Assembly (NCBI GenBank): GCA_963666735.1
Contig: OY762926.1
Coordinates: forward strand, 192,001-256,000
Source of the DNA: Gemmatimonadota bacterium
Lineage (GTDB): Bacteria > Gemmatimonadota > Gemmatimonadetes > Palauibacterales > Palauibacteraceae
Reading direction: 5' to 3'
DNA: 64,000 nucleotides
Part shown: positions 1-60,241 of the stretch, piece by piece
Layout of the letters: every line of letters begins with the position of its first letter
Position numbering within the stretch: position 1 is the stretch's first letter
Program-made: the position numbers and the translations under genes
Notes under the pieces: generated by a model
What the model saw: only the letters and a program-made list of their open reading frames with translations
Told to the model about the DNA's origin: nothing
Databases searched by the model: none

Positions 1-1494
1 ACCCGGCTCGGCAGCCGGATCGCCGAGGTCCACAACGGAAGCTCGCTGTTCACCGGATCGGCGGGTCAGGGCGAGAGCAACATCCGGCGGTGGATCATCG
101 AGAACGACTGGCTGGAGGCCATCGTTGCCCTGCCGCTCAACATGTTCTACAACACCGGCATCGCCACCTACGTCTGGGTGCTCACGAACCGCAAGCCCGA
201 GCACCGGCGGGGCAAGGTGCAGCTGATTGACGCGACCCGGTGGTTTCGACCGCTCAGGAAGAACCTGGGGAAGAAGAACTGCGAACTCGGGCCGGAGGAC
301 ATCGAGCGGATCTGCCGGACGTTCCTCAACTTCGAGGAGACGGAGGAGAGCCGGGTCTTCGACAACGAGGCGTTCGGATACTGGAGGGTGACGGTCGAGC
401 GGCCGCTACGGCTCAGGGTGGACCTGTCGACCGAGCGCCGCGCCGGGTTCTCCGTGGCGTGTCGTGATGCCGGGGAGGAGCCGCTCGCGAACGCCGTCGC
501 GCGGGCGGCCAAGACACTCGGCTCAGGGCCTCACTTCAACTCCAACATTTTTCTTGAGGCACTCAAGGCCGATATGTCCGGTCGTCGCGCGAAGCTCACG
601 GCCAAGCGCAAGAAGCTGTTGCAGACCGTGCTGGCCGAGCGGGACGAGGCGGCGGAGCCGGTGGTCAAGAGGGTCCACCGGCGAGGCACCGCGCCTGACC
701 CGATCCGGGGACTGTTCGAGTCTCGCGACGGCTCGAAGACTCGCGTCGTCGAGTACGAACCTGACACGGCGCTGAGGGACACCGAGCAGATCCCGCTCAC
801 GGAAGAGGGCGGAATTGAAGGGTTCCTGCGGCGCGAAGTGCTTCCCTACGCCGGGGATGCGTGGTACGTCGCGACGAGCGTGAAGATCGGCTACGAGATC
901 AGCTTCAACCGGTACTTCCACAAGCCCGAGCCGATGCGGACACTCGCTGAGATCGGGGACGAGATTCTGGCGGTCGAGCGAGAGACGGAGGGGCTGCTGG
1001 GGGAATTGCTGGGACGCGCGAGGAGTCTCGTTCCCACCAAGCCCCGCGTCTACGTCGACACATCAGTAATCGGAGGCTGCGAGGATGCGGAGTTCCGTGA
1101 ACCCTCTCGTCGGCTGATCGAGCGATGTCAAGACGGGGAAGTGACGCTCGTGGTTTCGGCTGTCACGGCGGGCGAGCTGCGGCAGGCTCCTTCCCCCGTG
1201 CGTCGGGTGCTGCCGTCCATCGGCCCGGAACACTTGGAGAGGGTGGAGGTCACGCGCGAAGTCGAGACTCTGGCGAACGGGTATATTGAGAGCGGAGCGC
1301 TTGGCGAGGGGATGCGCGCCGACGCCCTGCACATTGCTGCCGCGACTGTGGCCGAGGTGGACGTGCTGGCAAGCTGGAACTTCCGGCACATGGTGAACCT
1401 GCGCCGGATCCGTCAATACAACGAGGTGAACCGGATGTTGGGCTACCCTCCGGTGGACATTCGCACCCCCAGGGAGCTTGAAGATGACGAGTGA
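1..1494 (+). CDS. hsdM: Type I R-M methyltransferase HsdM (5' end outside window) with in-frame C-terminal PIN domain
   Basis: Frame 1 is open from base 1: HNGSSLFTG..GESNIRRWIIENDWLEAIVALPLNMFYNTGIATY, later LRDTEQIPL..KIGYEISFNRYF, typical of the HsdM C-half. After ..ETEGLLGELLG it reads on without a stop into RVYVDTSVIGG..E..DALHIAAA..SWNFRH (PIN fold). Confidence 0.92.
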   Translation, partial: TRLGSRIAEVHNGSSLFTGSAGQGESNIRRWIIENDWLEAIVALPLNMFYNTGIATYVWVLTNRKPEHRRGKVQLIDATRWFRPLRKNLGKKNCELGPEDIERICRTFLNFEETEESRVFDNEAFGYWRVTVERPLRLRVDLSTERRAGFSVACRDAGEEPLANAVARAAKTLGSGPHFNSNIFLEALKADMSGRRAKLTAKRKKLLQTVLAERDEAAEPVVKRVHRRGTAPDPIRGLFESRDGSKTRVVEYEPDTALRDTEQIPLTEEGGIEGFLRREVLPYAGDAWYVATSVKIGYEISFNRYFHKPEPMRTLAEIGDEILAVERETEGLLGELLGRARSLVPTKPRVYVDTSVIGGCEDAEFREPSRRLIERCQDGEVTLVVSAVTAGELRQAPSPVRRVLPSIGPEHLERVEVTREVETLANGYIESGALGEGMRADALHIAAATVAEVDVLASWNFRHMVNLRRIRQYNEVNRMLGYPPVDIRTPRELEDDE

Positions 1495-1738
1495 GACCGA
1501 ACGGAAGCCGTTCGACTGCGTGAAGTCGATGCGCGAGATCAGGAATCGAATCAGCGGCGAGATCGCCGACATGTCGTATGCCGAGCTTTCGCGATGGCTC
1601 GAAAGGCGGGTGCGCGAGGACTCCTTCTTCGCACGCATCCCGAAAGCCCGGAACCCATCACGACCGGCTGGGGGGCGAGGTGGGATGCGTGAGCCCGGTT
1701 CTTCGAGCGCAGCAATTGGAGACGGACCCCAAGGCTGA
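1484..1738 (+). CDS. Small hypothetical protein, putative antitoxin for the PIN domain
   Basis: ATG at 1484 with GGAG at 1473-1476; overlaps the hsdM-PIN 3' end; [15 protein letters not shown] resembles small ORFs that follow PIN toxins; TGATG overlap with the next gene. Confidence 0.6.
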
Positions 1739-3537
1739 TGGCAACCCAGCGCTATTCGGTAACTCCACACCCGATCGAATCCCTGCTGACCTGGGTGAAG
1801 TCGGGCGCAATCGCGATCCCTGAAATACAGCGCCCCTTCGTCTGGCCCGCGGTCAAGGTGCGCAATCTGCTTGACTCCCTCTACAACGGCTACCCGGTTG
1901 GCTATCTGATCTCCTGGCGCAACCCGACGATCAAGCTGAAGGACGGAAGCTTGTCCTCCGGGAAGCGTATCCTGATCGACGGGCAGCAACGCGTCACGGC
2001 GCTGATGGCAGCGCTGCTGGGGCACGAGGTGCTGACCAAGGACTACCGCACGGTTCGGATCCGAATCGCCTTTCATCCGCAGCATGAGCGCTTCGAGGTC
2101 CGCAACCCGGCCATCGCCAAGGACGGAGCCTGGATCGACGACATCGCCAAGATTTTCCACCCGGACGCCGACCTCTTCGAGTTCATGGACGACTACGCGT
2201 CGCGCAATCCGGGTGTTGATCGCAGGGTCGTCGGCAAGACGCTCCAGAGAGTCGGTAAGATCGTCAACAACCATGTCGGGGTCATCGAGTTGGCCGAGGA
2301 TCTCGACATCGAGACCGTCACCGAAATCTTCATCCGCGTCAACTCCGAGGGCACGCCGCTTTCCCAAGCCGATTTTGCCATGTCGAAGATCGCCGTCAAC
2401 GAGTCCTACGGCGGCAACCTACTGCGCAAGGCCATCGATTACTTCTGTCACCTCGCGGTGGCGCCGGAGTTCTTCTCGAAGATCGAGAAGGGAGACCCGG
2501 ATTTCACGGCTTCGCCGTTCTGGCCGAGAATGACGTGGCTCAAGGGTGTGAACGACGACCTCTACGATCCCACCTACACGGACATGCTGCGAGTGGCGTT
2601 CACCTCGAAGTTCGAGCGCGGCAGGTTGCAGGATCTGGTCGCGCTTCTCTCCGGGCGGAACTTCGAGACGCGCGAATACGAGGAGGTCATCGCCGAGGAC
2701 GCCTTCGCCCGTTTGCAGGAGGGCGTTCACGCCTTCATGAAGAAGACCCACTTCGACCGGCTGACCATGATCCTGCGCTCCTCGGGGTTCCTTACGTCGC
2801 GCATGATCCGCAGCCAGAACGCGGTCAACTTCGCGTTCATCCTGTACCTGCGGGGCCGCGACGAGCGGCTCGACGCCCATGAGCTCGAACGCCTCGTGCG
2901 GCGCTGGTACGTCATGTCGATCCTGACACGGCGTTACTCGGGAAGTCCCGAAACCGCGTTCGACCGTGACATCCGCCAGATCGCTGCGCAAGGACTGCGG
3001 CCATACGCCGAATCCGTCATTGAGAACGAACTGCCCGGCAGCTATTGGACGGGCATGTTGCCCCAACTCATGGACACATCGTTCTCGACGAGCCCCTACT
3101 TCATCGCATACCAAGCGGCCCAGGCCTACTTGGGCGACAAGGGATTCCTCTCCACCACAATCCGCGTGAGCGATCTTCTGCTCAATCGGGGTGATCGCCA
3201 TCACGTGTTCCCGCGCAAGAATCTGAAGGACAAGGGGCTCACGCGCGGGCGCTACAACCAAATCGCGAACTACGTGATCGCCCAGAGCGAGATCAACATC
3301 GCCATTGGCGACACTCCACCGGAGACCTACTTCGCAAGACTCGCCGAGCAGGTGAGCGGTGGGAAGAGGCGATATGGCGGAATCGTTGATCGCGCCGAGT
3401 TGGAGGAGAACCTCGCCAAGAATTGCGTCCCGCTGAGCCTGCTCGACGGGGAGATTCCCGACTACGACGACTTTCTGGCCGCCCGCCGTAAGCTGATGGC
3501 ACTGAGGATCAGGGCTTGGTTCGAGGCGCTGTCGTGA
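1738..3537 (+). CDS. GmrSD-like DUF262 protein (putative Type IV restriction endonuclease)
   Basis: DUF262 motifs [17 protein letters not shown] and IFIRVNS; C-terminal DRHHVFPR...QIANY..N HNH-like segment. Confidence 0.85.
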
Positions 3538-5003
3538 GAGGTCATCTTCGGCCATACCCCGAGATGCGAGACTCGGGGATGGAGTTGCTGGGGAAGGTGC
3601 CCGAGCACTGGGAGGTGCGGCGGCTGAAGTACGCGGTGTCCTTCACGGGAGGCGGTACTCCTTCGAAGACCAATGCTTCGTTCTGGAGGGGTCGGATACC
3701 TTGGGTATCGCCTAAGGATATGACCCGCAACCGACTCAGCGATACCGCCGACCACATTACCGAAGCTGCTGTGGCAGCGAGTGCGGCAAGCATCGTTGCG
3801 GCTGGTGCCGTGCTTGTAGTCGTCAGGTCTGGGATCCTGCGCAGGAAGATTCCAGTGGCGATCAACACGGTGCCGATGGCCGTCAACCAAGACATGAAGG
3901 CCATGCGTCCTCGGAAGGGGATCATGAGTGAGTATCTTCGCGGGTTGATCCAAGGCAACCAGTCGTTCTGGCTGAGCGAGTGGACGAAGCAAGGCGCTAC
4001 GGTGGAGAGCATTGAGCATCGCCTGCTGGCCAACTCGCGAATACCGATCCCTCCACCCTCCGAGCAGACCGCTATCGCCCGTTTCCTGGACGCCGCCGAC
4101 CGGCGCATCCGGCGCTACATCCGTGCGAAGGAGCGGCTGGTCGAGCTATTGGAGGAGCGGAAGCGGGCGCTGATCCACGAGGCCGTTACGGGCCGGATCG
4201 ATGTCCGAACCAGCCAGCCCTATCCGGCCCACAAGGACTCCGGCGTCGAGTGGCTGGGGAAGGTGCCGGAGCATTGGGTGCGATGTCGATTGAGGAACGT
4301 CGTGTCCGAGGTGACGACGGGTTCTCGGGGCTGGTCATCATATGCTGCGGACGACGGACCTCTGTTCGTGCGCGTCGCCAACCTGAGTCGTGGCTCACTT
4401 GAGTTGCGGTTGGAAGATGCTGTGCGACTCGATCTGCCAGCAACCTCTGAAGCAGCCCGAACGCGGATCGCCGAAGGTGATCTACTGCTTTCGGTAACAG
4501 CCTATATCGGATCGGTGGGAGTCGCCCCGGAAGGATTGGGAGAAGCTTATGTGAGCCAACATGTGGCGCGCTGTAGACCGTCCCCTGCGGTCGCCTCCAA
4601 GTGGCTCGGGTACGTGCTTCTCTCGTCGCTGGGGCAGACCTATGGTCAAACGCGGCTGTACGGCGGCACGAAGGACGGGTTATCACTTGACGATGTGCGG
4701 AACTATCCGATTCTGTTACCGTCCCGGGGCGAGCAGCGCGGGTTGGTGCGATGGATTGAGCGACGACTATCCCTGCTCGGAGAGCTGCGGGACGCAACCG
4801 AAAGCCAGATCGAACTCCTCCGCGAGTACCGTACCCGCTTGATCGCCGATGTCGTGACGGGCAAGCTCGATGTGCGCGAGGCGTCGGCGAGGCTACCGGG
4901 GGCGGACCCGCTCGCTGGCGACCGCGACCGAACCGACACCATCCCCACCGAATCGAACCTACATTCAACCGCACACGACACGTTGAAGGAGGCCGTACCA
5001 TGA
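3534..5003 (+). CDS. hsdS: Type I R-M specificity subunit HsdS
   Basis: Two [12 protein letters not shown] repeats flank two TRDs; [14 protein letters not shown] and [16 protein letters not shown] at 3534 overlaps the previous stop (GTGA). Confidence 0.93.
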
Positions 5004-5227
5004 CGAACTGGAACGAGTGCCCAGCCGTCGAGCGGACACCGGGCAGGGTGAGCGGAGCCTGGGTCTTTTCGGGCACACGGATTCCGCTCTTCGCGCTCTA
5101 CGAGAACCTGGCCAGCGGGGCCACCGTCGAAGAGTTCGTCGAGTGGTTTCCGGGGGTCGAGGAACGGCAGGTGAGAGCGGTACTCGAACACGAGGCGAAG
5201 ACGCTGAGAACGGCGTTGGCCTTTTGA
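5000..5227 (+). CDS. DUF433 protein (VapB45-like antitoxin)
   Basis: PGRVSGAWVFSGTRIP..LFALYENLASGATVEEFVEWFP; ATGA overlap with hsdS. Confidence 0.85.
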   Translation: MTNWNECPAVERTPGRVSGAWVFSGTRIPLFALYENLASGATVEEFVEWFPGVEERQVRAVLEHEAKTLRTALAF

Positions 5228-5553
5228 AGCTGCTGTTCGACCAGGGCACGCCCGCGCCGTTGCGGAGACGCCTGCCCGGACACTCCGTGGACACGTTGGC
5301 CGAGAAGGGCTGGTCCGAGAAGAGCAACGGCGAGTTGCTCGATCTGGCGGAGCGAGAGGGATACACGGTTCTGGTGACGACCGACCAGAGCTTGGCCCAC
5401 CAACAGAACCTGCCTCGGTGGCGAGTCGGGCTCGTCGTTTTGCTGTCCACGGACTGGTCTCAGGTTCGCCTGCGCACCGAAGAGATCGCCGAGGCCATCG
5501 AGGCGGTGCGTCCGGGCCAAGCCGTCGAAGTGCCGATCCCACATCGCGGCTGA
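5224..5553 (+). CDS. DUF5615 PIN-like protein (VapC45-like toxin)
   Basis: TTG start overlaps the DUF433 stop; MKLLFDQGTP..GW..KSNGELL..VLVTTDQSLAHQQNL. Confidence 0.82.
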   Translation: MKLLFDQGTPAPLRRRLPGHSVDTLAEKGWSEKSNGELLDLAEREGYTVLVTTDQSLAHQQNLPRWRVGLVVLLSTDWSQVRLRTEEIAEAIEAVRPGQAVEVPIPHRG

Positions 5554-5554
5554 C

Positions 5555-8554
5555 ATGACCACGGACACTTCCGAACGGGGCCTTGAACGCCTGATCTGCG
5601 AGGCGCTGACGGGCGACCCCTGCGATCCGCCGCCGCGCGGCACGGTTAGCGAACCCGCCCCCGGATACGGCGGCGTCGGCTGGTCTCCCGGCAACGGTCG
5701 CGACTACGACCGGGAGTACTGCGTCGATCTCGTCCAACTCCGGGCGTTCCTAGAGGGCACGCAACCCGAGTCCGCCGCCGCGCTCCGGCTCGCCGAGGAC
5801 CGCCCGACGCGCCGCAAGTTCCTGGCGCGGTTGCAGGGCGAGATCAACAAGCGCGGCACCATCGACGTGCTGTGCCACGGCGTCAGGCACGGTCCCCACC
5901 ACTTGGAGCTCTTCCACGGCACGCCATCGGCGGGCAACGAGACGGCCCGGAGGCTATTCGAGTTGAACCGCTTCACCGTCACCCGCCAGCTTCGCTACAG
6001 CCGGGACGAGACTCAGCGCGCGCTCGACATCGGACTGTTCATCAACGGCCTTCCCGTCTTCACTTTCGAACTCAAGAACAACCTCACGAAGCAGACGGTC
6101 CACGATGCCGTCGGGCAGTACAAAAAAGACCGCAACCCGCGGGAGCCGCTCTTTCGGCTCGGGCGCTGCGTGGCGCACTTCGCGGTGGATGAGAGCGAGG
6201 TCCGATTCTGCACCCACCTTGAGGGCAAGTCCTCGTGGTTCCTTCCCTTCAACCGTGGCTGGAACCAGGGCGCGGGCAACCCGCCCAACCCGGACGGCCT
6301 CAAGACCGAGTATCTGTGGCGCGAGGTGCTGCCCCGCGAGAGCCTGACCGACATCCTCGAGAACTACGCCCAGTTGCTGGCAGAGAAGGACACGAAGACC
6401 GGCAGGAAGAAGAGGAAGCAGGTTTGGCCCCGGTACCAGCAACTCGACGTGGTGCGCCGCCTTCTGGAGGACGCGGCGACGCACGGTGCCGGGAAGCGAT
6501 ACCTGATCCAGCACTCGGCGGGCAGCGGCAAGAGTTTCTCGATCGCGTGGCTCGCGCACCGGATGATCCCGCTCAAGAAGGACGGCAAGACCGTCTTCGA
6601 CTCGATCATTGTGGTCACAGACCGCCGGATCCTGGACAAACAAATCAAGGACACGATCCGGCAGTACCAGCAGGTGAAGGCCACCGTGGGGCACGCCGAG
6701 CGGTCGGGCGACCTGAGGAGGTTCATCGAGCAGGGGAAGCAGATCATCATCACGACGATCCAGAAGTTCCCCTTCATCCGCGACGAGATCGGGAGCGGGC
6801 ACCGCGACCGCGCCTTCGCGATCATTATCGACGAGGCGCATTCGAGCCAGGGCGGGAAGACCAGTTCGGCAGTGTCGGCTGTTCTGGGCGAGTCGGACGA
6901 CGTGGGCGAAGACGAACCGTACGACGAGAGGCTCCGGCGCCTGATGGCATCGCGCAAGCTGCTCCCCAACGCCAGCTACTTCGCCTTCACCGCGACGCCG
7001 AAGAACAAGACGCTGGAGCTCTTCGGCGAGCCGGACCCGCAGAGCGACGGCACGGTCCGGCACCTTCCGTTCCACACCTACAGCATGAAGCAGGCGATCC
7101 AGGAGGGGTTCATTCTGGACGTGCTCGAACACTACACGCCGGTCGAGAGCTACTACAGGCTCGCCAAGACGGTCGAGGAGGACCCGGAGTACGATGTCCG
7201 GAAGGCCGGGAAGAAGCTCCGGCGCTACGTTGAGAGCCACGAACACGCGATCCGGCTCAAGGCCGAGATCATGGTGGACCACTTCCACGAACAGGTGCTG
7301 GCGCAGCACAGGATCGGCGGCAAGGCGCGTGCGATGGTCGTCACGAATGGAATCGAGCGCGCGATCCAGTACTTCCACGCCATCCGCGACTACCTGAAGG
7401 AGCGCAAGAGTCCCCACGAGGCGCTCGTCGCGTTCTCGGGCAAGCACGAATACAAGGGAAGCCGGGTGAGCGAGGCCAGCCTGAATGGCCTGCCCTCGAA
7501 GAAGATCGCCGAGAGGTTCCGGGAGGACCCGCACCGGTTCCTCGTATGCGCGGACAAGTTCCAGACTGGCTACGACGAGCCTCTGCTGCACACGATGTAC
7601 GTGGACAAGACGCTTGCGGGGATCCGGGCGGTCCAGACGCTGTCACGGCTCAACCGGTCGCACCCGGAGAAGCGGGACGTGTTCGTGCTCGACTTCCTGA
7701 ACGACACGGAGACCATCACGAAGGCGTTTTCGGACTACTACAGGACCACGGTCCTGTCCGACGAGACCGACCCCAACCGGCTCCATGACTTGCAGGCCGA
7801 CCTCGACGGGGCGCAGGTCTACGCTCCCGATCTGGTCCGGGCGTTCGTGAAGCTGTACTTGGACGGCGCCGAGCGCGGACGGCTCGACCCCATCCTCGAC
7901 CGGTGCGTGGCGGCATACCTCGGGGACCTGGACGAGGACGAGCAGGTCCGGTTCAAGGGCAGCGCCAAGGCGTTCACACGCGCCTACGCGTTCCTGTCCT
8001 CGATCCTTCCCTACAACAACCTGGACTGGGAGGAGCGCTCGATCTTCCTGAACTTCCTGATCCCGAAGCTGCCCGCGCCGGAGGAGCCCGATCTGTCGAA
8101 GGGCATCCTCGAAAGGATCGACATGGACAGCTACCGCGTCGAGAAGCACAAGGTCCGGGAGATCATCCTTCAGGATGAGGACGCGGAGATCGACTCGATC
8201 AGGACGGGCGAGGGCGGAGGCAAGGGCGAGATCGAGACCGACCGGCTGTCGGCGATCATCGACGAGTTCAACGACCTGTTCGGCGGAATCGAGTGGGGGG
8301 ACCCCGACCGGGTCATCAGGACGGCCACGGAGGACATCCCCGCTGCGGTGGCGAAGGACGCTAGGTTCAAGAACGCGCGGCAGAACTCCGACAGGGAGAA
8401 CGCCCGCGTCGAATCCGACCAGGCGACGAAGCGGGCAGTAATCGGGATGGTGCGGGACAACACGCAACTCTACAAACTTTTCGCCGACAACCCGGACTTC
8501 AAGCGGTGGATGTCGGACATCGTGTTCCGGCTGGCCTACAAAGCGGCTGGCTGA
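5555..8554 (+). CDS. hsdR: Type I R-M restriction subunit HsdR
   Basis: Nuclease motif D.GLFINGLPVFTFELK; helicase motifs QHSAGSGKS, DEAH, FTATPK, FQTGYDEP and QTLSRLNR. Confidence 0.95.
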   Translation: MTTDTSERGLERLICEALTGDPCDPPPRGTVSEPAPGYGGVGWSPGNGRDYDREYCVDLVQLRAFLEGTQPESAAALRLAEDRPTRRKFLARLQGEINKRGTIDVLCHGVRHGPHHLELFHGTPSAGNETARRLFELNRFTVTRQLRYSRDETQRALDIGLFINGLPVFTFELKNNLTKQTVHDAVGQYKKDRNPREPLFRLGRCVAHFAVDESEVRFCTHLEGKSSWFLPFNRGWNQGAGNPPNPDGLKTEYLWREVLPRESLTDILENYAQLLAEKDTKTGRKKRKQVWPRYQQLDVVRRLLEDAATHGAGKRYLIQHSAGSGKSFSIAWLAHRMIPLKKDGKTVFDSIIVVTDRRILDKQIKDTIRQYQQVKATVGHAERSGDLRRFIEQGKQIIITTIQKFPFIRDEIGSGHRDRAFAIIIDEAHSSQGGKTSSAVSAVLGESDDVGEDEPYDERLRRLMASRKLLPNASYFAFTATPKNKTLELFGEPDPQSDGTVRHLPFHTYSMKQAIQEGFILDVLEHYTPVESYYRLAKTVEEDPEYDVRKAGKKLRRYVESHEHAIRLKAEIMVDHFHEQVLAQHRIGGKARAMVVTNGIERAIQYFHAIRDYLKERKSPHEALVAFSGKHEYKGSRVSEASLNGLPSKKIAERFREDPHRFLVCADKFQTGYDEPLLHTMYVDKTLAGIRAVQTLSRLNRSHPEKRDVFVLDFLNDTETITKAFSDYYRTTVLSDETDPNRLHDLQADLDGAQVYAPDLVRAFVKLYLDGAERGRLDPILDRCVAAYLGDLDEDEQVRFKGSAKAFTRAYAFLSSILPYNNLDWEERSIFLNFLIPKLPAPEEPDLSKGILERIDMDSYRVEKHKVREIILQDEDAEIDSIRTGEGGGKGEIETDRLSAIIDEFNDLFGGIEWGDPDRVIRTATEDIPAAVAKDARFKNARQNSDRENARVESDQATKRAVIGMVRDNTQLYKLFADNPDFKRWMSDIVFRLAYKAAG

Positions 8555-9425: not shown

Positions 9426-9764
9426 ATGAGCGCCGGACGCGCCGTTTGGGTGAAGGTTCGCGCCAGCGAGGCGGAGCGTGCCGAGTGGCACGCCAAGGCG
9501 CGCGCCGCGGGCCTCACGCTGTCGGATCTGGTGCGCCGGTCGGTGGGCCGGACGCGCACATGGACCGTGGCGCACGCCGAGGTCGAGCGCGAGCGCAGCC
9601 GCCAAGTGGCGCGCGTCGGGAACAACCTCAACCAGATCGCTCGGTGGGCAAACACCCACCGGGGGGCCATCGAGGCGGTCGAGGTGATCGGCCACCTCGT
9701 CGCCATCAGGCGGGCGCTCGCGGCACTGTCCCCCGCCGAAGGCCCGGAGTGGGATGCTGATTAA
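9426..9764 (+). CDS. mobC: Relaxosome accessory protein MobC/MbeC (RHH)
   Basis: VKVRASEAE..KARAAGLTLSDLVR and ARVGNNLNQIAR motifs; overlaps the relaxase start. Confidence 0.9.
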   Translation: MSAGRAVWVKVRASEAERAEWHAKARAAGLTLSDLVRRSVGRTRTWTVAHAEVERERSRQVARVGNNLNQIARWANTHRGAIEAVEVIGHLVAIRRALAALSPAEGPEWDAD

Positions 9765-11355
9765 GTTCCTGGCGCACGGGACCGGATCGGCCGGCAAGGC
9801 GGCCGGCTACCTCCTCGGCGAGCGGGACGCCGCTGGGAAGCCGCGCGAGGGCGTCGAGGTCCTTCGAGGCGATCCGAACCAGGTGGCCGCCGTCGCCGAC
9901 ACGCTTGCGTTCGAGCACAGGTACACATCCGGCGTGATCGCGTGGGCACCGGAGGACGAACCGGCCGACGCCGAGATCGAGGCGGTCGTGGACGCCTTCG
10001 AGGACACGGCCTGGGCGGGACTGGAGCCCGACCGATACGCCTGGACCGCCGTGCTGCACCGCGAGCGCGGCGGCGGCGCGCACGTCCACGTCCTCGCCGC
10101 GCGGTGCGACCTGGAGACCGGCCGGAGCCTCAACATCGCCCCGCCGGGCTGGGAGAAGACCTTCGGCCCGCTCCGGGACGCCTTCAATTCCGAACACGGC
10201 TGGGCTCGCCCGGACGACCCGGCTCGGGCCAGGGTGCAGCAACCCGGCCACCGCGCCTACATCGAAGCGACCCGACTGCGGGCCGGGCTCCGGCTCGAAG
10301 CCTCCCCCCGCGACCTGATCCGGGACTACCTGCTCCAGCGCGTCGAGCACGGCACGGCGCGGAACCGGGCCGATGTCGTCGCCGCACTTCGGGAGGCGGG
10401 CCTGGAAGTGCCGCGCCGGGGCAAGGACTACCTCACCGCGCTGGACCCCGAGACCGGCGACCGCTGGCGGCTGAAAGGAGAACTGTATGGAGAGAACTTC
10501 GACCGCGAACGATTTGACCGAGCGGCTGCGGAAGAGGCTGGAGAGCGAGAGACGGGAGATCGAGGAGCTGACCGCGAGCGAGCTCGAAAGGCTCGGCGAG
10601 AACTCGCGGCGCGCCGCGAGGAACGCGCTGCGTTCCATCGAGCGCGATACGGAGGAGGCGGCCGGGAGGATGCGCGAGCTGCTGGCAAGGGCTTGGCAAC
10701 GGCCCCTGATCGTAGGCCTGAGCCTTTGGCTCGGTTTCTTCGGCGGAAGCTGGGCGACGATGCAGTGGTTGTCGAGGAGCATCCAGAACCGGATCGAGAT
10801 CCGCGCCGAACTGGGCCGGGACATCGAGGACGCCCGGCGGACGCTGGCCCAAATGGAGGAGGACACCTGGGGGCTCGTGTTCCGCGAGATCGAGGGCGAG
10901 CGGTTCGTGGTGGTGCCGGACGAGGTGCTGGCCGATCCGCCCTGGTGGAAGGTGGACGGAGACCTTCCGGCGTTGAAGCTGTTGAGAGAGTGAGGGAGCT
11001 GTATGAGCGAGTTGGAACGGCAGTTGACGGAGGCCTTGAAGAAGTTGTCCGCGCAGTACGTGACGGAGCAGCGGCGGCACTCCGGGCAGGTCGAAGGCTT
11101 GAGGCAGCACGTCGAAGCCTTGCGGCAGCGCGTCGAGCGGCAAAGCGCGGAGAACGACGCCTTGCGGCAGCACGTCGAGCGGCAGAGCGGGGAGAGCGAA
11201 GCCTTGCGGAGGCGAATCGAGTGGCTGAACGAGGACTTTACACGCTTAACCGAGTCGTACGGCGCGCTCGCCGCAACCTTACGATGATGGTCACGGCGAT
11301 GCGCCTGCGCGGGCTGGGGCGCGATCGCGATCGCGATTACGGTCCGAGCCGCTGA
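9754..11355 (+). CDS. mbeA: MOBP5 (ColE1 MbeA-like) relaxase
   Basis: MLIKF..G.G...AAGYLLG..D (motif I Tyr), YTSGVIAW, H......HVH..DLETGRSLN, and RLKG.LY. Confidence 0.85.
   Translation: MLIKFLAHGTGSAGKAAGYLLGERDAAGKPREGVEVLRGDPNQVAAVADTLAFEHRYTSGVIAWAPEDEPADAEIEAVVDAFEDTAWAGLEPDRYAWTAVLHRERGGGAHVHVLAARCDLETGRSLNIAPPGWEKTFGPLRDAFNSEHGWARPDDPARARVQQPGHRAYIEATRLRAGLRLEASPRDLIRDYLLQRVEHGTARNRADVVAALREAGLEVPRRGKDYLTALDPETGDRWRLKGELYGENFDRERFDRAAAEEAGERETGDRGADRERARKARRELAARREERAAFHRARYGGGGREDARAAGKGLATAPDRRPEPLARFLRRKLGDDAVVVEEHPEPDRDPRRTGPGHRGRPADAGPNGGGHLGARVPRDRGRAVRGGAGRGAGRSALVEGGRRPSGVEAVERVRELYERVGTAVDGGLEEVVRAVRDGAAAALRAGRRLEAARRSLAAARRAAKRGERRLAAARRAAERGERSLAEANRVAERGLYTLNRVVRRARRNLTMMVTAMRLRGLGRDRDRDYGPSR
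10487..10993 (+). CDS. mbeB: MbeB-like mobilisation protein nested in the relaxase gene in another frame
   Basis: AAGGAG Shine-Dalgarno before ATG 10487, right after the relaxase RLKG motif as in ColE1; coiled coil plus one hydrophobic segment (LIVGLSLWLGFFGGSW) and TWG. Confidence 0.75.
   Translation: MERTSTANDLTERLRKRLESERREIEELTASELERLGENSRRAARNALRSIERDTEEAAGRMRELLARAWQRPLIVGLSLWLGFFGGSWATMQWLSRSIQNRIEIRAELGRDIEDARRTLAQMEEDTWGLVFREIEGERFVVVPDEVLADPPWWKVDGDLPALKLLRE
11003..11287 (+). CDS. mbeD: MbeD-like protein nested in the relaxase gene
   Basis: GGGAG Shine-Dalgarno; MSELERQLTEALKKL N-terminus typical of MbeD/MobD; heptad-repeat coiled coil. Confidence 0.78.
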   Translation: MSELERQLTEALKKLSAQYVTEQRRHSGQVEGLRQHVEALRQRVERQSAENDALRQHVERQSGESEALRRRIEWLNEDFTRLTESYGALAATLR

Positions 11356-12656
11356 TGAGCGGGAAATCTGGCGCGGACGGCCTCCCGCAGCGAGCTTTCA
11401 GGAGCGCAGATCGTGCGGTCCATCGCGAGAGGAATCGAATGATGGCACGCACGAAGCGGGACCGGCGCAGCTACAGCGCCGGCGAGTGGGGCCGGAACCG
11501 GGTGAGGGTGTTTGCCGACCCGAAGACCGGCGTTTTCCAGATTGAGTGGCGAGAGAACGGGCGAAGGCTCACCCGGTCCCTGAAACACCGGGACTGGGCT
11601 CGGGCCAAGCGGCAGGCCGACGAGGCCGCCGCAGGCCTTGCGATGTACGCGCCCAACGGCAGGGCCGAAGCCGAGTCCGAGCCGCTCACCTTGGAAGGGC
11701 TTTTTGAAATCTACGGTGAGGAGGTGGTCCCGACGAAGCACCGGCGGACCCAGCACCAGAACAGGGCCACGATGCGGATGTTTCTGGACTTCCTCGGGCG
11801 CGACCGAAGACCCGAGACGCTTTCCCGGCGCGACTGGGACCGGTTCATCCGGGAGCGGCGGGCAGGCAGGGTCGGACCCAGCGGCAAGCCCGCAGCCGAC
11901 CGTACCATCGTGTGCGACCTGAAAGTCCTGCTCGCGATCCTAAACTGGGCCGCCAAGTCGAGAGACGAGCACGGCCGCTTGCTCCTCGACAGGAATCCCC
12001 TCAAGGGACTCAGGGTGCCGAAGGTGAAGAACACCACCCGGGTCGTGCTCTCCGACGAGGAATACGAGGCGCTTCTGAGGGTCTCCGGACAGGTGGGTTG
12101 GCGCTTCCGGGCCGCCCTCGTGCTCGCGCACGAGACGGGGCACCGAATCGGAGCCATCCGGAAGCTGAGGTGGGCGGACATCGACTTCGAGGACAGGATC
12201 ATCGTTTGGCGGGCCGAGCATGAGAAAACCGGATACGAGCACCGGACGCCCGCGACCGACGAGGCGATCTCCGCCTTGGAGGAGGCGCAGAGGCACGCTG
12301 GCGGGACCGGAGACGCGCCGGTTCTGCCCGCGCCGCGGGATCCGTCGACGTGCGTGAGCCGTACGCTGGTGGGCACTTGGTGGAAGACCGCCGAGAGGCG
12401 GGCGGGGTTGGAGCCCAAGCGCGGGAGAGGCTGGCACTCGCTCAGGCGGAAGTTCGCTTCAGACCTCATCGGGCTGCCGCTCAAGGTGCTATGCGATCTC
12501 GGCGGCTGGAGGGAAGCCAAGACCGTCCTGCGCTGCTATCAGCACACCGACGACGTACAACTCAGGACGGCTCTGGACAGCCGTCCCCGGAACGGTCGGC
12601 ACCCGATCCAATCGGCGGGAACCGAACAGCGGGAATCGGATCACCGAATCCCGTAA
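11355..12656 (+). CDS. Tyrosine recombinase/integrase (start may be 11439 or 11442)
   Basis: ETGHR..I..L.W.DID, WHSLRR and LGGW...TV..CY give catalytic R, HxxR, W and Y; N-terminal arm-binding-like region. Confidence 0.9.
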   Translation: MSGKSGADGLPQRAFRSADRAVHRERNRMMARTKRDRRSYSAGEWGRNRVRVFADPKTGVFQIEWRENGRRLTRSLKHRDWARAKRQADEAAAGLAMYAPNGRAEAESEPLTLEGLFEIYGEEVVPTKHRRTQHQNRATMRMFLDFLGRDRRPETLSRRDWDRFIRERRAGRVGPSGKPAADRTIVCDLKVLLAILNWAAKSRDEHGRLLLDRNPLKGLRVPKVKNTTRVVLSDEEYEALLRVSGQVGWRFRAALVLAHETGHRIGAIRKLRWADIDFEDRIIVWRAEHEKTGYEHRTPATDEAISALEEAQRHAGGTGDAPVLPAPRDPSTCVSRTLVGTWWKTAERRAGLEPKRGRGWHSLRRKFASDLIGLPLKVLCDLGGWREAKTVLRCYQHTDDVQLRTALDSRPRNGRHPIQSAGTEQRESDHRIP

Positions 12657-12920: not shown

Positions 12921-13265
12921 ATGGCCCGTCCCCGGAAGCCCGAGGCCGAGCGCAGGACCCGCACGATCGGCGTGCGCGTCACGACCACGGAGGCCGCAGA
13001 GATCGCCCAGCGGGCCGGAGCGGCCCGCATGACGAAGGGCGGCTACATGCGCCGCAGGGCGCTGGGGCAGCCGGTCCGCGAGGCAGCCGTTCACCGTCTC
13101 GGCACCAGAGAGCGCGTCGAACTCCACCGGATCGGCGTGAACCTCAACCAGATCGCGCGCGCCCTGAACTCCGGGGTCTCGGCACCCGACGGGACGCTGG
13201 AGGCGGTGGAGCGGGTGGGCGAGCTTGCGGCCGATCTGCTGAGCGGCGAGGCGCTGGACCGATGA
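12921..13265 (+). CDS. mobC: Second MobC relaxosome protein
   Basis: AAGGAGG Shine-Dalgarno; MARPRK..IGVRVT..ELHRIGVNLNQIAR. Confidence 0.88.
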   Translation: MARPRKPEAERRTRTIGVRVTTTEAAEIAQRAGAARMTKGGYMRRRALGQPVREAAVHRLGTRERVELHRIGVNLNQIARALNSGVSAPDGTLEAVERVGELAADLLSGEALDR

Positions 13266-14467
13266 TCCCGAAGATCAACAGTCTGGGGCGCTCGTTCGCC
13301 GGTGCCGCGGCGTACTGTCTGCACGATTCCCCGACGCCGGACGACCGGAGTCCGGAGACTTCGGAGCGGGTCGCGTGGGCCGACACCCGTAACCTCGCGA
13401 CGTTTCGGCCGGAGCGGGCCGCGCGGCTGATGGCCGCGACCGCGAAGGCGGCGCCCGACCTCAAACGGCTGGCGGGCGCGGCGCCAGGGGGGCGCAAGCT
13501 GGCGAAGCCGGTGCTGCACTACTCGCTCAGCTGGGCGCAGGACGAGACGCCGGACAAGCGGGAGATGAGCCGCGCGGTGGACGGGAGCCTGGAGGCGCTG
13601 GGTCTGGAGGGCCACGAGGCGCTGGTCGTCGCGCACGACGACACCCGGCATCCCCATGTCCATGTGGTCGCCAACCGTGTCGATCCGGAGACCGGGAAGG
13701 CGGCGAAGCTGGGCAACAGCAAGCTCCGGCTGTCGCGCTGGGCCGAGGGTTACGAGCGGGAGCAGGGACGGATCCGCTGCGAGGAGCGGGTCAGGAACAA
13801 CGAGCGGCGGCGGGCGGGCCAGGCGGTGGTTCGAGGTCTGTCGAACCGGCCGCGCCACTGGGCGCGCGTCCGCCGCGAGGGGTTGCAGCCCGGGCGGGCG
13901 AGGCGGGCAAGGGGGCCGCGCGATGAGGAGCGCGTCGACATGGAGGCATGGCGGCGCGCCGAGGCTGAGGCTTGGGAGACGGTCGCGGGCGGGCGCGAGA
14001 GGGGCCTCCAGCACCTCGAGAGCCGGGCGCGCAAGGAATGGGCCGAACTGCTCAAGCGGCAGGAGGAGATGCGGCAGCGGCTCGACCGGGAGAGCCGCAC
14101 CGTGCTCGGGCGGCTCCGGATCTGGCGGCGCGATCGCTCACTCGGGGAACTGGCCGGGGCAATCCGGGGCCGGGAGGATCTGGTCGAGGGCTGGCGCGAG
14201 GATCTCGACCGGTACCACAGGGACGAGCGGGCCGAGTTGGGCAAGGCACACGGCGAGAGAGCCCGGGAGATCGAGCGCCGTGGGCACAAGTTCTATCGAA
14301 GTAGGCTGGTGGACGCGGAGCGGAACGCATGGGCGGTGCGGGAGACGATGAGGGAGCGCGAACAGACACGGGAGCGGGCGCGCGGCCAGACCATCACCCG
14401 CATCGTTGTACCGCCCCCACCCCGGCCCAGAGGCCCCGAGCGTGGCGGGGGAGGGTTCGAGCGATGA
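13262..14467 (+). CDS. MOBP (VirD2-like) relaxase
   Basis: MIPKI...GRSF.G...Y..HD, VLHYSLSW and HDDTRHPHVHVVANR (3H motif). Confidence 0.88.
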   Translation: MIPKINSLGRSFAGAAAYCLHDSPTPDDRSPETSERVAWADTRNLATFRPERAARLMAATAKAAPDLKRLAGAAPGGRKLAKPVLHYSLSWAQDETPDKREMSRAVDGSLEALGLEGHEALVVAHDDTRHPHVHVVANRVDPETGKAAKLGNSKLRLSRWAEGYEREQGRIRCEERVRNNERRRAGQAVVRGLSNRPRHWARVRREGLQPGRARRARGPRDEERVDMEAWRRAEAEAWETVAGGRERGLQHLESRARKEWAELLKRQEEMRQRLDRESRTVLGRLRIWRRDRSLGELAGAIRGREDLVEGWREDLDRYHRDERAELGKAHGERAREIERRGHKFYRSRLVDAERNAWAVRETMREREQTRERARGQTITRIVVPPPPRPRGPERGGGGFER

Positions 14468-14757
14468 GCCTTGCCTCGGTCATCGCCAAGCGGATCGCCC
14501 GGAAACGGCTGATCAGGAACGGTCTTGGGTACGCTACGCGCTCTGGAGGTCGACCTTGGTGTTCTGATACCGTAATCACCTGACAGTCTGCCCCCAAAAG
14601 GGAGACGGTGGCCACCCGCCACCGAGACAATGAGCTACGCATCGGGGACGCCCTTCGTTGCGGTCTCGTAGTTCTTGCGTTCCAGCCATTCCTCTAGCGT
14701 GGAGTTGCCCCGCTTTGACGGACACCTATCCATTGGGGTCAAGCAAGGAGGTGTTCC

Positions 14758-15072
14758 ATGGCGGGCCGGAAGGGGCGGTATCCATCCGAGTACAGGGAGC
14801 GGCTGGTGGAACTGGTGAGGGGCGGGCGTAGTGCCGCGTCACTCGCCCGGAAGTTCGAGCCGTCGGAGCAGACGATCCGGAACTGGGTCCGGCAGGCGGA
14901 TGTGGACGAGGGGTTCCGTAGCGACGGGCTGACAACGGAGGCGCGCAGCGAGCTGCGGCGCCTGGAGCGGGAGAACAAGCGGCTCAGGATGGAGCGCGAC
15001 ATCCTAAAAAAAGCCGCGGCCTGGTTCGCGAGGGAGAGCGGATCGATCCCCGGCGGGGGTATGCGTTCATGA
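14758..15072 (+). CDS. IS3 transposase OrfA
   Basis: HTH plus leucine zipper (ELRRLERENKRLRMERDILKKAAAWF); AAAAAAAG slippery run at ~15006. Confidence 0.9.
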   Translation: MAGRKGRYPSEYRERLVELVRGGRSAASLARKFEPSEQTIRNWVRQADVDEGFRSDGLTTEARSELRRLERENKRLRMERDILKKAAAWFARESGSIPGGGMRS

Positions 15073-15917
15073 GGGCGCACCGGGCCGAGTTCCCGCTTCG
15101 GGCCATGTGCCGGGTGCTGGGTCTCTCCCCCAGCGGCTACTACGACTGGTTGAGGCGTCCTCCCTCGGACCGCGCGCGTCGGGACGCGGAACTGGAGGCG
15201 CGGATCGCGAAGATATGGACCGGCAGCGGCGAGACGTACGGCCGTCCGCGGATCCACGCGGCGCTCAGGGCCGAGGGCGAGCGGGTGGGGCAGAAGCGCG
15301 TGGGGCGGCTGATGAGGGGGCTGGAGATCGAGGGCGCGACCAGGCGGCGCTTCAAGACGGCGACGACGAAGAGGGATGCCGAGGCCCGCCCCGCGCCGGA
15401 CCTGGTGGACCGTGACTTCTCGGCCTCGGGGCCCGACGAGCTGTGGGTGGCCGACATCACCTACGTCCCCACGTGGGCTGGCTGGCTGTATCTGGCCGTC
15501 GTGCTCGACGTCTGGAGCCGCCGCGTCGTCGGCTGGGCCATGGCGACGCACATGCGGACCGAGCTCGTCGAGACCGCGCTGGCGATGGCTCTCGCAAGGC
15601 GTCGTCCCGAGGGTCGTGTCGTGCATCATTCCGACAGGGGCTCGCAGTACACCTCGCTCGCCTTCGGGGAGCGCTGCCGCGAGTCGGGCATCGCCCAGTC
15701 CATGGGCTCGGCGGGCGATGCGTACGACAACGCCATGTGCGAGAGCTTCTTCGCCACCCTCGAGTGCGAGCTGATCTGGAAGCGCTCGTTCCGCACGGCG
15801 GACGAGGCGCGACGGGAGGTCTTCGGCTTCATCGAGGGCTTCTACAACACCCGGCGGCTGCACTCGGCACTCGGCTACGAGTCGCCGGCCGACTACGAGA
15901 GCAACCATGCGGCCTGA
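15069..15917 (+). CDS. IS3 transposase OrfB (DDE integrase core)
   Basis: WVADITY, HHSDRGSQY and DNAMCESFF; -1 frame relative to orfA with ATGA overlap. Confidence 0.92.
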   Translation: MRAHRAEFPLRAMCRVLGLSPSGYYDWLRRPPSDRARRDAELEARIAKIWTGSGETYGRPRIHAALRAEGERVGQKRVGRLMRGLEIEGATRRRFKTATTKRDAEARPAPDLVDRDFSASGPDELWVADITYVPTWAGWLYLAVVLDVWSRRVVGWAMATHMRTELVETALAMALARRRPEGRVVHHSDRGSQYTSLAFGERCRESGIAQSMGSAGDAYDNAMCESFFATLECELIWKRSFRTADEARREVFGFIEGFYNTRRLHSALGYESPADYESNHAA

Positions 15918-26598: not shown

Positions 26599-28389
26599 TC
26601 AGCAGGACACGCAGTTGTGGCTGTTCTTCGAGCCGAGGCTCTCAAGCAGGGCCACGGCCTCCGGGAAGGGTTGCGTGCGCTGGTAGGGGCCGTTCGCCAT
26701 GTCCGCGGTCGTCTGGCCCACGCGACTGACGGCCGTGACGTCCGCGCCGTGCTCGACGAGGAAGCGGATGACCTCCAGATCGCCGCGCGAGGCCGCGTTG
26801 TGGAGCGGGGTATAGCCCTCTTCGTCGCGCCGGTTCACGTCCGCGCCCAACTCTTCCACCAGGTAGCGGACGGCCGGCAGCCAGCCGTCCGGGACGTACC
26901 GGTGGGCGTTGCTGGGGAAGCCCTGGCCGTAGCCGATGCCGGTCGCGGCGTGGATCGGGTAATCGGCGGGGCCGCCCACGGGCACGGGGGGAACCCCGGA
27001 CAGATCTCGCTTCTCGCGGTCCCACGCCGGGAGCCGCCGCGAGGGCACCTTGATGGTGGCGAGGTGGGGGCCGGCGCCGTACTCGACGAGGAGCCTCATC
27101 GCCTCCACGTCCAGGGAGTACGCGGCGCGCCAGAAGGGGGTCGCGCCCTTCAGGTCGATCTGCAGGAGGTCGAAGTTGTACGACACCCACCACAGGTGCT
27201 TCCCGAGACGCGCGTTGGGATCCACGCCCGCGTCGAGCAGACGGCGCATGACGTCGAGATAACTGTGCCGCTGCTGCCCGTGGGCGTGTTGCTGCGGGTA
27301 GCGCGATTTCGGCGCCCAGTGGGCGTTGAGGGCGGCGAAGAGCGGTGTCGCGCCGGCGGCGGAGGCGAGTTGCGGGTCGGCGCCGGCCTCGAGCAGTTCC
27401 ATGGCGAGGTCGAAGTGGCCGTTGATCATCGCGATGAGCATGGGGCTCGTGTGGTCGCCGCCGCTCACCTGGTTGACGTCCGCCCCGGCCTCGATGAGCG
27501 CGCGCACGGTGCCTGCGTGCCCCTCGCGGGCGGCGTGGAGCAGGGCGGTGAGACCGCCGTGGCCGCCGATGAGGTCGCCGTAGCCGAGCGGCTCGGGCTC
27601 CTCGATCGGACGGTCGTAATCCTCCTCGTCCTCGGCCGCGGGACGGCCCGCCGGGGCGTCGGGAGCCGCGGCCAGCGGCGCATCGGATGGGGCGGGCTGG
27701 GGCGGCACCGGCGGTTCGGGTTCTCCGCGCATCCGCGCCGCGCGGGCCCGGCGGTCGGCTTGCGACCACCCGGCCAACGCTGTGATGTCGGTCACCCAGG
27801 TGGCAAGAGCGGGGTCCGCACCGCCCTCGAGCAGCGCCCGCACGGCGGCTTCCCGGCCGCGGGCCGCCGCGTACATGACCGCCGTCTGGCCCCAGCGCGC
27901 TTCGCGGGCGTCGGCATCCCCGCCGTGCTCCAGGAGCAGGCGGACGGCCTCCGCGTCGCCCGCGCCCGCGGCGAGGTGCAGCGGCGTCGCGCCGCCCACG
28001 TCATCGGTGGTGGCCGTCTGTTCCGCACCGCCGGCGAGCAGGAGGCGCACGACGTGTGCGCTGCCGACTTCGCTCGCGAGGAGCAGCGGCGTATAGGCCC
28101 CGATGCGGGTGACGGCGCCGACGTCCGCGCCCGCCTCGAGGAGCAAGCCCGCCAGGGCGGCGTTCGCGGAGCGGGCGGCCCAGTGGAGTGCGGTCATCCC
28201 GTCGCCCTGCGGCGCGTTCACGTCGGCGCCAGCGGACAGCAGCGCGCGCACGGAGGCGACATCGCCCGTCATCGCCGCGTCCGCCACCGGCGAATCGGGC
28301 GACAACGCGCCGCTCAGAAGGACCGCCAGCAGCGCGACCGCCGGCGGCTTCAGGGCCGTGACCATCCGGAGGTGCCCGTCCCGCTTCAC
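26599..28389 (-). CDS. Secreted ankyrin-repeat protein
   Basis: Signal-like N-terminus; many G.T.LH.AA..G and GADVN repeats; C-terminal CVSC. Confidence 0.9.
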   Translation of the reverse strand: MKRDGHLRMVTALKPPAVALLAVLLSGALSPDSPVADAAMTGDVASVRALLSAGADVNAPQGDGMTALHWAARSANAALAGLLLEAGADVGAVTRIGAYTPLLLASEVGSAHVVRLLLAGGAEQTATTDDVGGATPLHLAAGAGDAEAVRLLLEHGGDADAREARWGQTAVMYAAARGREAAVRALLEGGADPALATWVTDITALAGWSQADRRARAARMRGEPEPPVPPQPAPSDAPLAAAPDAPAGRPAAEDEEDYDRPIEEPEPLGYGDLIGGHGGLTALLHAAREGHAGTVRALIEAGADVNQVSGGDHTSPMLIAMINGHFDLAMELLEAGADPQLASAAGATPLFAALNAHWAPKSRYPQQHAHGQQRHSYLDVMRRLLDAGVDPNARLGKHLWWVSYNFDLLQIDLKGATPFWRAAYSLDVEAMRLLVEYGAGPHLATIKVPSRRLPAWDREKRDLSGVPPVPVGGPADYPIHAATGIGYGQGFPSNAHRYVPDGWLPAVRYLVEELGADVNRRDEEGYTPLHNAASRGDLEVIRFLVEHGADVTAVSRVGQTTADMANGPYQRTQPFPEAVALLESLGSKNSHNCVSC

Positions 28390-29795: not shown

Positions 29796-29800
29796 CTGGA

Positions 29801-40418: not shown

Positions 40419-40550
40419 CTTCCTCCTGTTTCCTTGTGCAACCGCGTGGTATTTCACGTCATATTTCGGATGACATTTCACGGTCGAACAAGTGTCGTAG
40501 CTGCACAAGTGTCTGGTCCGGGGAAGCCGGACGGCAAGGGGATCAACACC

Positions 40551-57613: not shown

Positions 57614-58128
57614 TTGAGCCAGTCCTCCGGGTTCATCTCCGGTTCGGGGCGGAGCGAGTACCGGCGCACGACTTCGATGGCCTCGAAACCGAGGTCGTCG
57701 GCGAGCGCGTTCGCGATCAGGTTGTCCGCCCCGGTGAAGAGACGCACCTCGTGGATGTCCCAGTCCGCCGCCCACTCGAAGGCGGCGCGCAGCAGGCGGC
57801 GCAGGTTCCCCTTGCGCCGCTCTTCCCGCCTCACGAACGGCGTCTGGATGCGCACGTAGCGCGGCGGGTCGAACAAGGGTTCGTTCTCCTCCACGAAGCA
57901 GACGAGCATGCCGTCGAGGCCGCCGTCATCCGCCTCCAGCACGAAGACGACGCTCGTCGCCTCTTCGATGTGACGGCGGAACATCCCCGCGCGCGTCTCG
58001 ATGGCGTCCGTGCGGAGCCGCCGGTAGGCGGGGTTGAGGGCGTGAATCCGCATGTACCGCGTCCACATCGCGACGAGTCCATCGATATCGCCGACGTCGG
58101 CCTGTCGAACCGTGACTGTCTCAGGCAT
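57610..58128 (-). CDS. GNAT-family acetyltransferase
   Basis: FVR...RRKG..RRLL and N......LGF motifs; overlaps both neighbours. Confidence 0.75.
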   Translation of the reverse strand: MPETVTVRQADVGDIDGLVAMWTRYMRIHALNPAYRRLRTDAIETRAGMFRRHIEEATSVVFVLEADDGGLDGMLVCFVEENEPLFDPPRYVRIQTPFVRREERRKGNLRRLLRAAFEWAADWDIHEVRLFTGADNLIANALADDLGFEAIEVVRRYSLRPEPEMNPEDWLK

Positions 58129-60195: not shown

Positions 60196-60241
60196 TGCGT
60201 CTCTCCCCGTGCCCGTCGTCTCGGCCCGATCCGCCCGCGTC

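Follow-up and report, generated by a model that had tools for sequence, protein, structure and literature searches.

In a stretch of Gemmatimonadota DNA of 64,000 nucleotides (hereafter the window), the gene for the methyltransferase subunit HsdM of a Type I restriction system runs in frame into a VapC-fold PIN domain, and a small gene overlaps the 3′ end of the fusion. The comparisons below document the fusion, how widely it is spread and that it is selected, the fold of its tail with the acidic residues, the obligate nature of the partner gene, and the exchange of the cassette. Judged from the sequences, the fusion is genuine, of old standing and maintained by selection. A new observation is that the PIN domain and its partner are swapped together, as a cassette that different hsdM alleles receive where their C-terminal helix ends.

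The Fused Protein

The features of the locus are as follows, all on the forward (+) strand:

1..1008, +, 3′ part of hsdM, residues 372-707 of 868 (HsdM_N, N6_Mtase and PDLC03029 over residues 4-708; terminal helix 686-707)
998..1008, +, branch point of fused and unfused alleles (contigs of runs X1, X6 and X7 diverge after 998; in-frame TTG at 1006-1008)
1009..1044, +, linker, residues 708-719, about 12 amino acids, flexible (model pLDDT <50 at residues 703-716; variable in relatives)
1045..1494, +, VapC-fold PIN domain, residues 720-868 (structure matches, weak Pfam match, conservation, dN/dS), with D724 at 1057, E763 at 1174, D812 at 1321 and S-W-N831 at 1372-1380
1471..1476, +, Shine-Dalgarno-like AGGGAG, 7 nt 5′ of the ATG of the 84-aa ORF
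1484..1738, +, 84-aa basic helical protein, candidate cognate antitoxin (conserved core at about residues 1-60, KxFDxVxxMRxxRD)
1738..3537, +, GmrSD_N (DUF262) protein, Type IV restriction-like cargo
3516..5003, +, hsdS
5000..5553, +, DUF433 and DUF5615/PIN_10-like gene pair, a separate second toxin-antitoxin-like module
5555..8554, +, hsdR, intact, 999 aa
9426..12656, +, MobC, relaxase-like gene and tyrosine integrase adjoining the operon, a mobile-element context

Frame +1 contains no stop codon from before the start of the window until 1492-1494. In the single-contig genome the start codon lies 1113 nt 5′ of the window, and the product of 868 amino acids bears out the initial annotation, made from the window alone, in which the HsdM frame was read as continuing without a stop into a PIN domain. 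The N-terminal half is a Type I M subunit with PF12161 (HsdM_N), PF02384 (N6_Mtase) and the motifs DGACGTGG (I) and NPPY (IV), and the PADLOC profile for Type I methyltransferases, PDLC03029, matches residues 4-708 with an E-value of 1e-246. In the full-length model, which had a pTM of 0.38 with low confidence in the methyltransferase half and was taken for the helix-linker-PIN layout only, the helix at residues 686-707 leads through a low-confidence linker into the PIN domain.

The tail has a weak match to the Pfam PIN family (residues 721-820, E 0.0017, 19.4 bits, under the cut-off of 23.6), which is also matched by 49 of 70 family members at E<=0.01. Modelled alone, the tail reached a pLDDT of 95.5, and its top Foldseek and structural matches were VapC toxins (Z 13.1, rmsd 2.4, 127 residues aligned), while a sequence search of the PDB with the PIN profile gave 0 matches. 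The acidic residues had been described as kept, and D724, E763, D812 and S-W-N831 are indeed all present. We take the first three to be the active-site acidic residues of the PIN fold, assigned by position, and the fourth acidic position of many PIN domains presumably corresponds, by alignment, to the Asn of S-W-N. One detail had been misread: the junction was thought to be devoid of ATG, GTG and TTG codons, but an in-frame TTG at 1006-1008 (L707) lies 13 codons 5′ of the R in RVYVD, without a well-spaced Shine-Dalgarno sequence.

A REPxxxY-like motif is frequent in the linkers of relatives; in the form REPxxxY or AEPxxxY it recurs in linkers (at 1009-1044 in the window and in relatives) and in the leaders of related PIN proteins. 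In two further proteins, P0153 and P0219, an HsdS-like N terminus runs into the PIN domain, which suggests recombination among repeated hsd segments.

Spread of the Fusion and Selection on the PIN Domain

The combination of N6_Mtase and PIN, which the initial annotation had suggested looking for across genomes, was found in 120 of the 120 matches listed among the 205 that were returned for query residues 690-868 against proteins of 477-1519 aa. Identities ranged from 55 to 92%; in all 120 the PIN domain is preceded by N6_Mtase and by the C-terminal motif of HsdM, and 118 contain NPPY. The fusions span three named phyla plus the lineage of the window. Ten of 80 GTDB loci were fused, of which seven belong to the Acidobacteriota, two to the Pseudomonadota and one to Ca. 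Latescibacterota, and in two of these loci a broken hsdM lies upstream. In the lineage of the window, fusions occur in genomes G107, G109 and G111, and in another family in G183, G232 and G331; the nearest named HsdM proteins of the window are from Ca. Palauibacter and Gemmatimonadetes. The hsdM gene is frameshifted in some relatives (G109, L019, L038). No fusion was flagged in 80 JGI loci, many of them on short contigs, and none was found on plasmids, where three Leptospira matches were PIN-only. Nine viral loci matched at a distance (26-57%).

Contigs that cover the junction were examined from 4 of 23 listed sequencing runs, at least three of the listed runs being labelled sponge metagenome. 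Two studies contributed contigs that match the window across the junction with 0 differences, one from X1 (912-1139), which may be the source sample, and one from X7 (912-1245); a contig of X2 (917-1059) spans it with 3 differences. The stretch at about 1010-1035, where a check had been advised, is thereby covered. The RNA runs contained only 4-5% of the sequence words. Other contigs of X1, X6 and X7 diverge from the window and end in ...LEILGRSG followed by a stop, as unfused HsdM proteins do.

All of the 108 full-length fusions that were aligned, after 13 partial or non-matching rows had been left out, share D724, S726, D733, E763, D812, H815 and S-W-N831. The dN/dS ratio of the PIN domain was 0.08-0.46 in the 96 unsaturated of 105 pairs and that of the methyltransferase end was 0.12-0.33; in the pair closest to the window it was 0.13 for the PIN domain. 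Because these sets were assembled by similarity, their conservation is overstated, whereas the dN/dS of close pairs is not inflated in this way. Across 120 proteins, the distance from the last HsdM motif to the PIN domain falls into 11 length classes, between 50 and 78 residues. The suggestion that a stop codon had recently been lost by accident is thus refuted, given the fusion in all 120 matches listed, the junction in contigs of other runs and selection on the PIN domain; nor do the close homologs all keep hsdM and PIN as separate genes, since fused homologs are widespread.

A Dedicated Partner Gene

The 84-aa ORF overlaps the stop codon of hsdM-PIN by 11 nt, in agreement with the overlap first noticed. 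A partner ORF was located directly 3′ of the PIN sequence in 80 of 80 GTDB loci, 70 of which had supplied the sequences of the profile. The same holds for 77 of 79 JGI loci that had no part in the profile, and in the other two the PIN sequence lies at a contig end. Matches to the partner profile at a distance of over 1.5 kb from the main PIN numbered only five in 1.6 Mb. In 15 loci, the identity of the partner correlated with that of the PIN domain (partial r 0.60) and not with that of the methyltransferase (0.005). By this comparison the partner gene tracks the PIN domain rather than the methyltransferase, and the small protein, earlier put forward as a candidate antitoxin, behaves as a cognate partner in that it adjoins the PIN domain in nearly all loci and its identity follows that of the PIN domain. 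The predicted net charges of the two are opposite, +4 for the partner and -7 for the PIN domain. Searches of Pfam, NCBIfam, PADLOC, PHROGs, PDB sequences and the ESM Atlas with the 84-aa protein returned nothing usable, and 70 members of the partner family gave no consistent Pfam match, with a single weak FitA-like RHH match (E 0.002).

Free PIN proteins of about 152 aa from the same family form 1393 clusters in Bacteroidota, Planctomycetota, Acidobacteriota, archaea and others. Because the partner follows the free PIN genes and is rare elsewhere, the PIN domain and the 84-aa ORF appear to constitute a toxin-first cassette that is widespread and uncharacterised. In one Leptospira plasmid (NZ_CP092989.1; L211:210-2131) a free PIN and small-gene cassette lies directly 3′ of the plasmid replication gene, a site typical of addiction modules, and the NCBI names are VapC-family toxin for the PIN protein and hypothetical for the partner. 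The VapBC-1 system of Leptospira was also considered as the same cassette and rejected, as it is antitoxin-first.

Exchange of the Cassette and Origin of the Fusion

Methyltransferase and PIN identities were unrelated among the 108 fusions (rho -0.01), some pairs having 95% identity in the methyltransferase and 55% in the PIN domain; in a smaller set of 15 loci the correlation was 0.33. Between the window and G107, dS was 1.07 for the PIN domain and 0.32 for the methyltransferase. In that part of the HsdM tree from which both kinds of allele were sampled, fused and unfused sequences are intermixed. Because the start of the PIN domain is present in only 22 of the 120 nearest HsdM proteins, and is missing from the nearest of all (92%), the PIN tail is by all appearances dispensable. 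In the genus, this HsdM is present in 9 of 36 genomes, fused in four, split in two (G110 and G112, with a separate and translationally coupled PIN gene) and without PIN in three. A remnant of the linker is retained in P0292, from which the PIN domain is absent.

Two or more divergent partner copies within 1.5 kb were observed in 6 of 9 fused loci, as compared with 2 of 59 and 2 of 43 free loci, counts that are descriptive in that related loci are not independent; the locus of the window has one copy. At three loci there are second PIN genes that are fused to the partner and have altered conserved residues. PIN domains fused at the C terminus to the partner were observed behind hsdM-PIN at L017:10778-11440, L026:11174-11833, L038:10761-11426 and L007:1219-2103, as well as in P0177 and P0399; several of the PIN-partner fusions have altered conserved residues, and the order is reversed, partner then PIN, in P0133 and P0346. 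Possibly, PIN-partner fusions are self-silenced or decoy copies.

In unfused relatives the stop codon of hsdM abuts hsdS, and the cassette therefore sits at the hsdM-hsdS joint. All 136 fused PIN domains fell into one clade of 175 sequences in a FastTree analysis (support 0.965). In an IQ-TREE analysis with more distant sequences, 42 of 43 were placed in a clade of support 83 that contained five free rows, and up to nine changes were needed. A single origin as a firm claim was dropped on account of this mixed clade, and we limit our claim to one or a few fusion events, as estimated from the trees. The separate PIN gene of G112 arises from inside the fused clade, with a long branch of its own, and split PIN genes therefore look secondary to the fusion.

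The Operon and Its Surroundings

The locus contains both hsdS and hsdR, and the operon is predicted from its genes to be a complete Type I restriction-modification set. Among the 17 hsdM-PIN loci that were mapped with their flanks, hsdS is next in all 17 and hsdR sequence is present in every one. In related operons many other defence genes lie in the interval from hsdM to hsdR, including GmrSD, Mrr, HEPN, Fic and additional PIN genes (50/73 ORFs scanned), which makes it a cargo hotspot. A cargo-rich hsd interval fits the defence-rich sponge symbionts portrayed in the available text of PMC5649159. At the locus, no promoter or terminator consensus and no nearby tRNA was seen.

Integrase DNA similar to that at 9426-12656 is also present on the far side of hsdM. 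Together with the MobC-relaxase-integrase module, a second relaxase and an rve-type transposase gene were observed across 9426-12656 and 13262-15914 of the window and 188503-189750 of the genome. Similar modules recur at several other genomic sites, and upstream of hsdM there is a broken copy of the integrase. The same genome contains a decayed remnant (G000:C1:3370070-3370772, L003) with DNA like that upstream of hsdM, a PIN fragment interrupted by a stop, the first part of a partner gene and a DUF433 copy, and L012:2205-2463 is a remnant similar to that of L003. There are two further Type I loci, at G000:C1:269669-283081 (L201) and 1088915-1095608, and in the former hsdM and hsdS are separated by about 7 kb of cargo, in which there are an AbiEi/AbiEii pair and several ORFs that match no Pfam family.

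Other genes of the window include a type I PKS of 3727 aa (39714-50894, +; KS-AT-DH-MT-ER-KR-ACP-KS-AT), which we take to resemble the Sup-type PKS of sponge symbionts, a set of DUF1585/1587/1588/1592/1595 and DUF1552 genes followed by a gene for an ankyrin-repeat protein (26602-32320, -), and an open frame of 1004 aa (58052-61063, +) without a Pfam match at E 1e-5 and with overlapping frames on the opposite strand.

Comparison With Known Systems

The fusion shares with VapBC the VapC-like PIN fold (Z 13.1), the acidic triad and a small, overlapping and co-inherited partner gene. It differs in that the toxin comes first, is fused to a methylase of 708 aa and has S-W-N at the last site, and in that the partner has no family match in Pfam, NCBIfam, PADLOC or the PDB. 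Furthermore, the antitoxin gene is upstream in canonical VapBC, whereas the partner is downstream here in 80/80 and 77/79 loci. Canonical VapBC antitoxins carry an RHH, AbrB, Phd or HTH DNA-binding domain, and of these only the single weak FitA-like RHH match was seen in the partner family.

The PrrC protein of the Type IC system EcoPrrI, an ABC-ATPase/HEPN anticodon nuclease, is likewise an RNase toxin within a Type I hsd operon, but here a PIN RNase with its own partner gene is joined covalently to the M subunit, and no ABC-ATPase/HEPN anticodon nuclease of the PrrC type was found in the operon of the window. As described in the text available of PMC12707154, PrrC is a separate protein that is activated when Stp inhibits EcoPrrI. 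The Ronin system (HsdMS and RonA) also ties a toxin to HsdM and HsdS; according to the portion available of the preprint, it has no hsdR and its toxin is a separate membrane protein of 61 aa that is suppressed by HsdMS (bioRxiv 2023.04.06.535777), whereas here hsdR is intact and the toxin would be a fused nuclease.

Co-transcription of PIN genes with Type I subunits, in arrangements that are not conserved, was reported by Matelska et al. (2017), who, in the accessible part of the article, describe a direct interaction between PIN-type toxin-antitoxin and restriction-modification systems as not demonstrated (PMC5499597), and PIN-GNAT-EVE genes near hsd operons were reported, in the available text, by Bell et al. 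(2020; PMC7641849). As far as the available text of these studies goes, they share with our locus the co-transcription with hsd genes as well as DUF433-PIN_10 and GmrSD; the PIN genes are described there as neighbors, and a fusion to HsdM is not mentioned. We found no description of an HsdM-PIN fusion in the full-text literature as far as it was covered, most subscription journals being outside this coverage.

Polymorphic toxin systems combine a conserved N-terminal carrier with an exchangeable C-terminal toxin, a cognate immunity gene behind it and orphan immunity-like copies. The fusions share a variable C-terminal toxin-like domain on a conserved carrier, with the cognate gene downstream, and spare partner copies behind the fusions (in 6 of 9 fused loci, with none in the window). 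However, the carrier is a cytoplasmic methylase without an export or delivery domain, its N-terminal 708 residues being wholly HsdM, and what is exchanged at its C terminus are alleles from a single PIN family, within which all the variation falls, rather than distinct toxin folds. By analogy, the system probably works like a VapBC-type toxin-antitoxin module welded to a Type I methyltransferase, and it is not a canonical VapBC, PrrC or Ronin.

Function of the Fusion

Our leading hypothesis, on which we are evenly divided, is that the PIN domain is an antitoxin-controlled RNase tethered to the methyltransferase, by which the restriction locus is stabilised and, through abortive infection, given a backup. 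A free, toxin-first cassette would have been inserted between hsdM and hsdS and, once or a few times, would have lost its own start and become the tail of hsdM. Each M2S complex would then bear two PIN domains, which the small protein would bind and silence, following the logic of type II toxin-antitoxin systems. If synthesis of the antitoxin stopped, because a phage shuts off host expression or because the locus is lost or replaced, the PIN domain would be freed, cut tRNA or rRNA and halt translation, which would make the restriction locus addictive and provide an abortive backup. The conserved hsdM could provide the homology for cassette swaps, and a cell with spare partner genes would be protected from the other PIN alleles that circulate in its community, although the spare partners may also be mere duplication debris. 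The VapC toxins covered in the available text of PMC11356721 cut tRNA or rRNA. Some VapC proteins are, by the same text, weakly toxic, which we count against a toxin reading, as we do the Asn at the fourth acidic site and the apparent dispensability of the tail.

We also considered the possibility, raised in the initial annotation, that the fusion is a built-in guard. A DNA-mimic anti-restriction protein (Ocr, ArdA) or another inhibitor, bound to M2S or R2M2S, would change the complex and displace the small protein or let the two PIN domains dimerise, and the cell would arrest. There is precedent in PrrC with EcoPrrI (PMC12707154, available text) and in Ronin, where HsdMS cages the toxin and ArdA or Ocr release it (bioRxiv 2023.04.06.535777, available portion). 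The fusion has also stayed in frame despite many linker indels, HsdM was the sole large Pfam-family partner in the 30 long matches scanned (best 150 of a 50%-cluster search), and hsdS and hsdR accompany hsdM-PIN in all 17 mapped loci. Yet a guard of this kind is unlikely, given that a dedicated partner is always kept and follows the PIN domain rather than the methyltransferase, that the linker is unconserved in length and sequence and of low confidence in the model, and that PIN domains are freely exchanged among methyltransferases, with PIN domains of 55% identity on methyltransferases of 95%. Moreover, the tail helix of the M subunit of PacII lies in a bundle in both the open and the closed states, according to the text available of PMC9613975, and the same role may be supposed for the helix of this HsdM. 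A similarly unlikely extension is an allele-swapping RNase guard, in which the two PIN domains of each M2S would fire when a DNA mimic from a phage or conjugative element blocks restriction, PIN-antitoxin cassettes would be exchanged at the 3′ end of hsdM across phyla in sponge communities, and spare antitoxins would be collected, which would amount to an intracellular polymorphic-toxin system on a methylase.

Another explanation is that the fusion is incidental and that a PIN-only protein made from an internal start in the linker is the working toxin. A TTG at codon -13 is present in 7 of 8 loci of the nearest clade, in an operon where TTG accounts for about 6% of Leu codons; an ATG at -12 occurs in four other loci, a Met occupies the corresponding position in 27 of 121 fused proteins but only 6 of 98 unfused ones, and the PIN gene of G110 and G112 is separate and translationally coupled. 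On the other hand, L013 and L019 have no ATG, GTG or TTG in the 30-36 codons before the PIN domain, the candidate codons vary in place, lack a well-spaced Shine-Dalgarno sequence and are shared among kin, the Met of the free PIN proteins (MKPRIY) is replaced in the fusions, and the split PIN gene of G112 is derived, being nested in the fused clade on a long branch. We therefore consider an internal start quite unlikely.

It is also quite unlikely that the PIN domain, rather than poisoning the cell, serves the restriction complex as an accessory nuclease or is a passenger that is tolerated and was trapped by the loss of its own start. PIN genes near Type I subunits have been noted, with a role as restriction module described as unshown in the accessible part of PMC5499597, and the tail is patchy among close HsdM proteins, with only a linker remnant left in P0292. 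But purifying selection on the PIN domain equals that on the methyltransferase, the cognate partner is always kept and diversifies together with the PIN domain, and hsdR is intact. Finally, a one-off read-through or assembly error is virtually impossible: although the nearest HsdM relatives stop at the junction and hsdM frameshifts occur in G109, L019 and L038, it is refuted by the 120 of 120 homologous clusters listed that are fused, by the identical junction in contigs of two studies, and by selection on the tail.

Implications

Links between restriction-modification and toxin-antitoxin systems have so far mostly been neighborhoods, whereas here the two are combined in one polypeptide that has been selected across phyla. 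The fusion escapes routine annotation because PADLOC labels the 868-aa protein MTase_I only. As a single polypeptide, it makes the hypothesis of a toxin that backs up or stabilises a Type I system testable with point mutants and a single plasmid. It also brings to light a large and uncharacterised family of putative toxin-first PIN cassettes (1393 clusters) with a partner that belongs to no known family, the swapping of which resembles that of polymorphic toxins, but inside a cytoplasmic defence enzyme.
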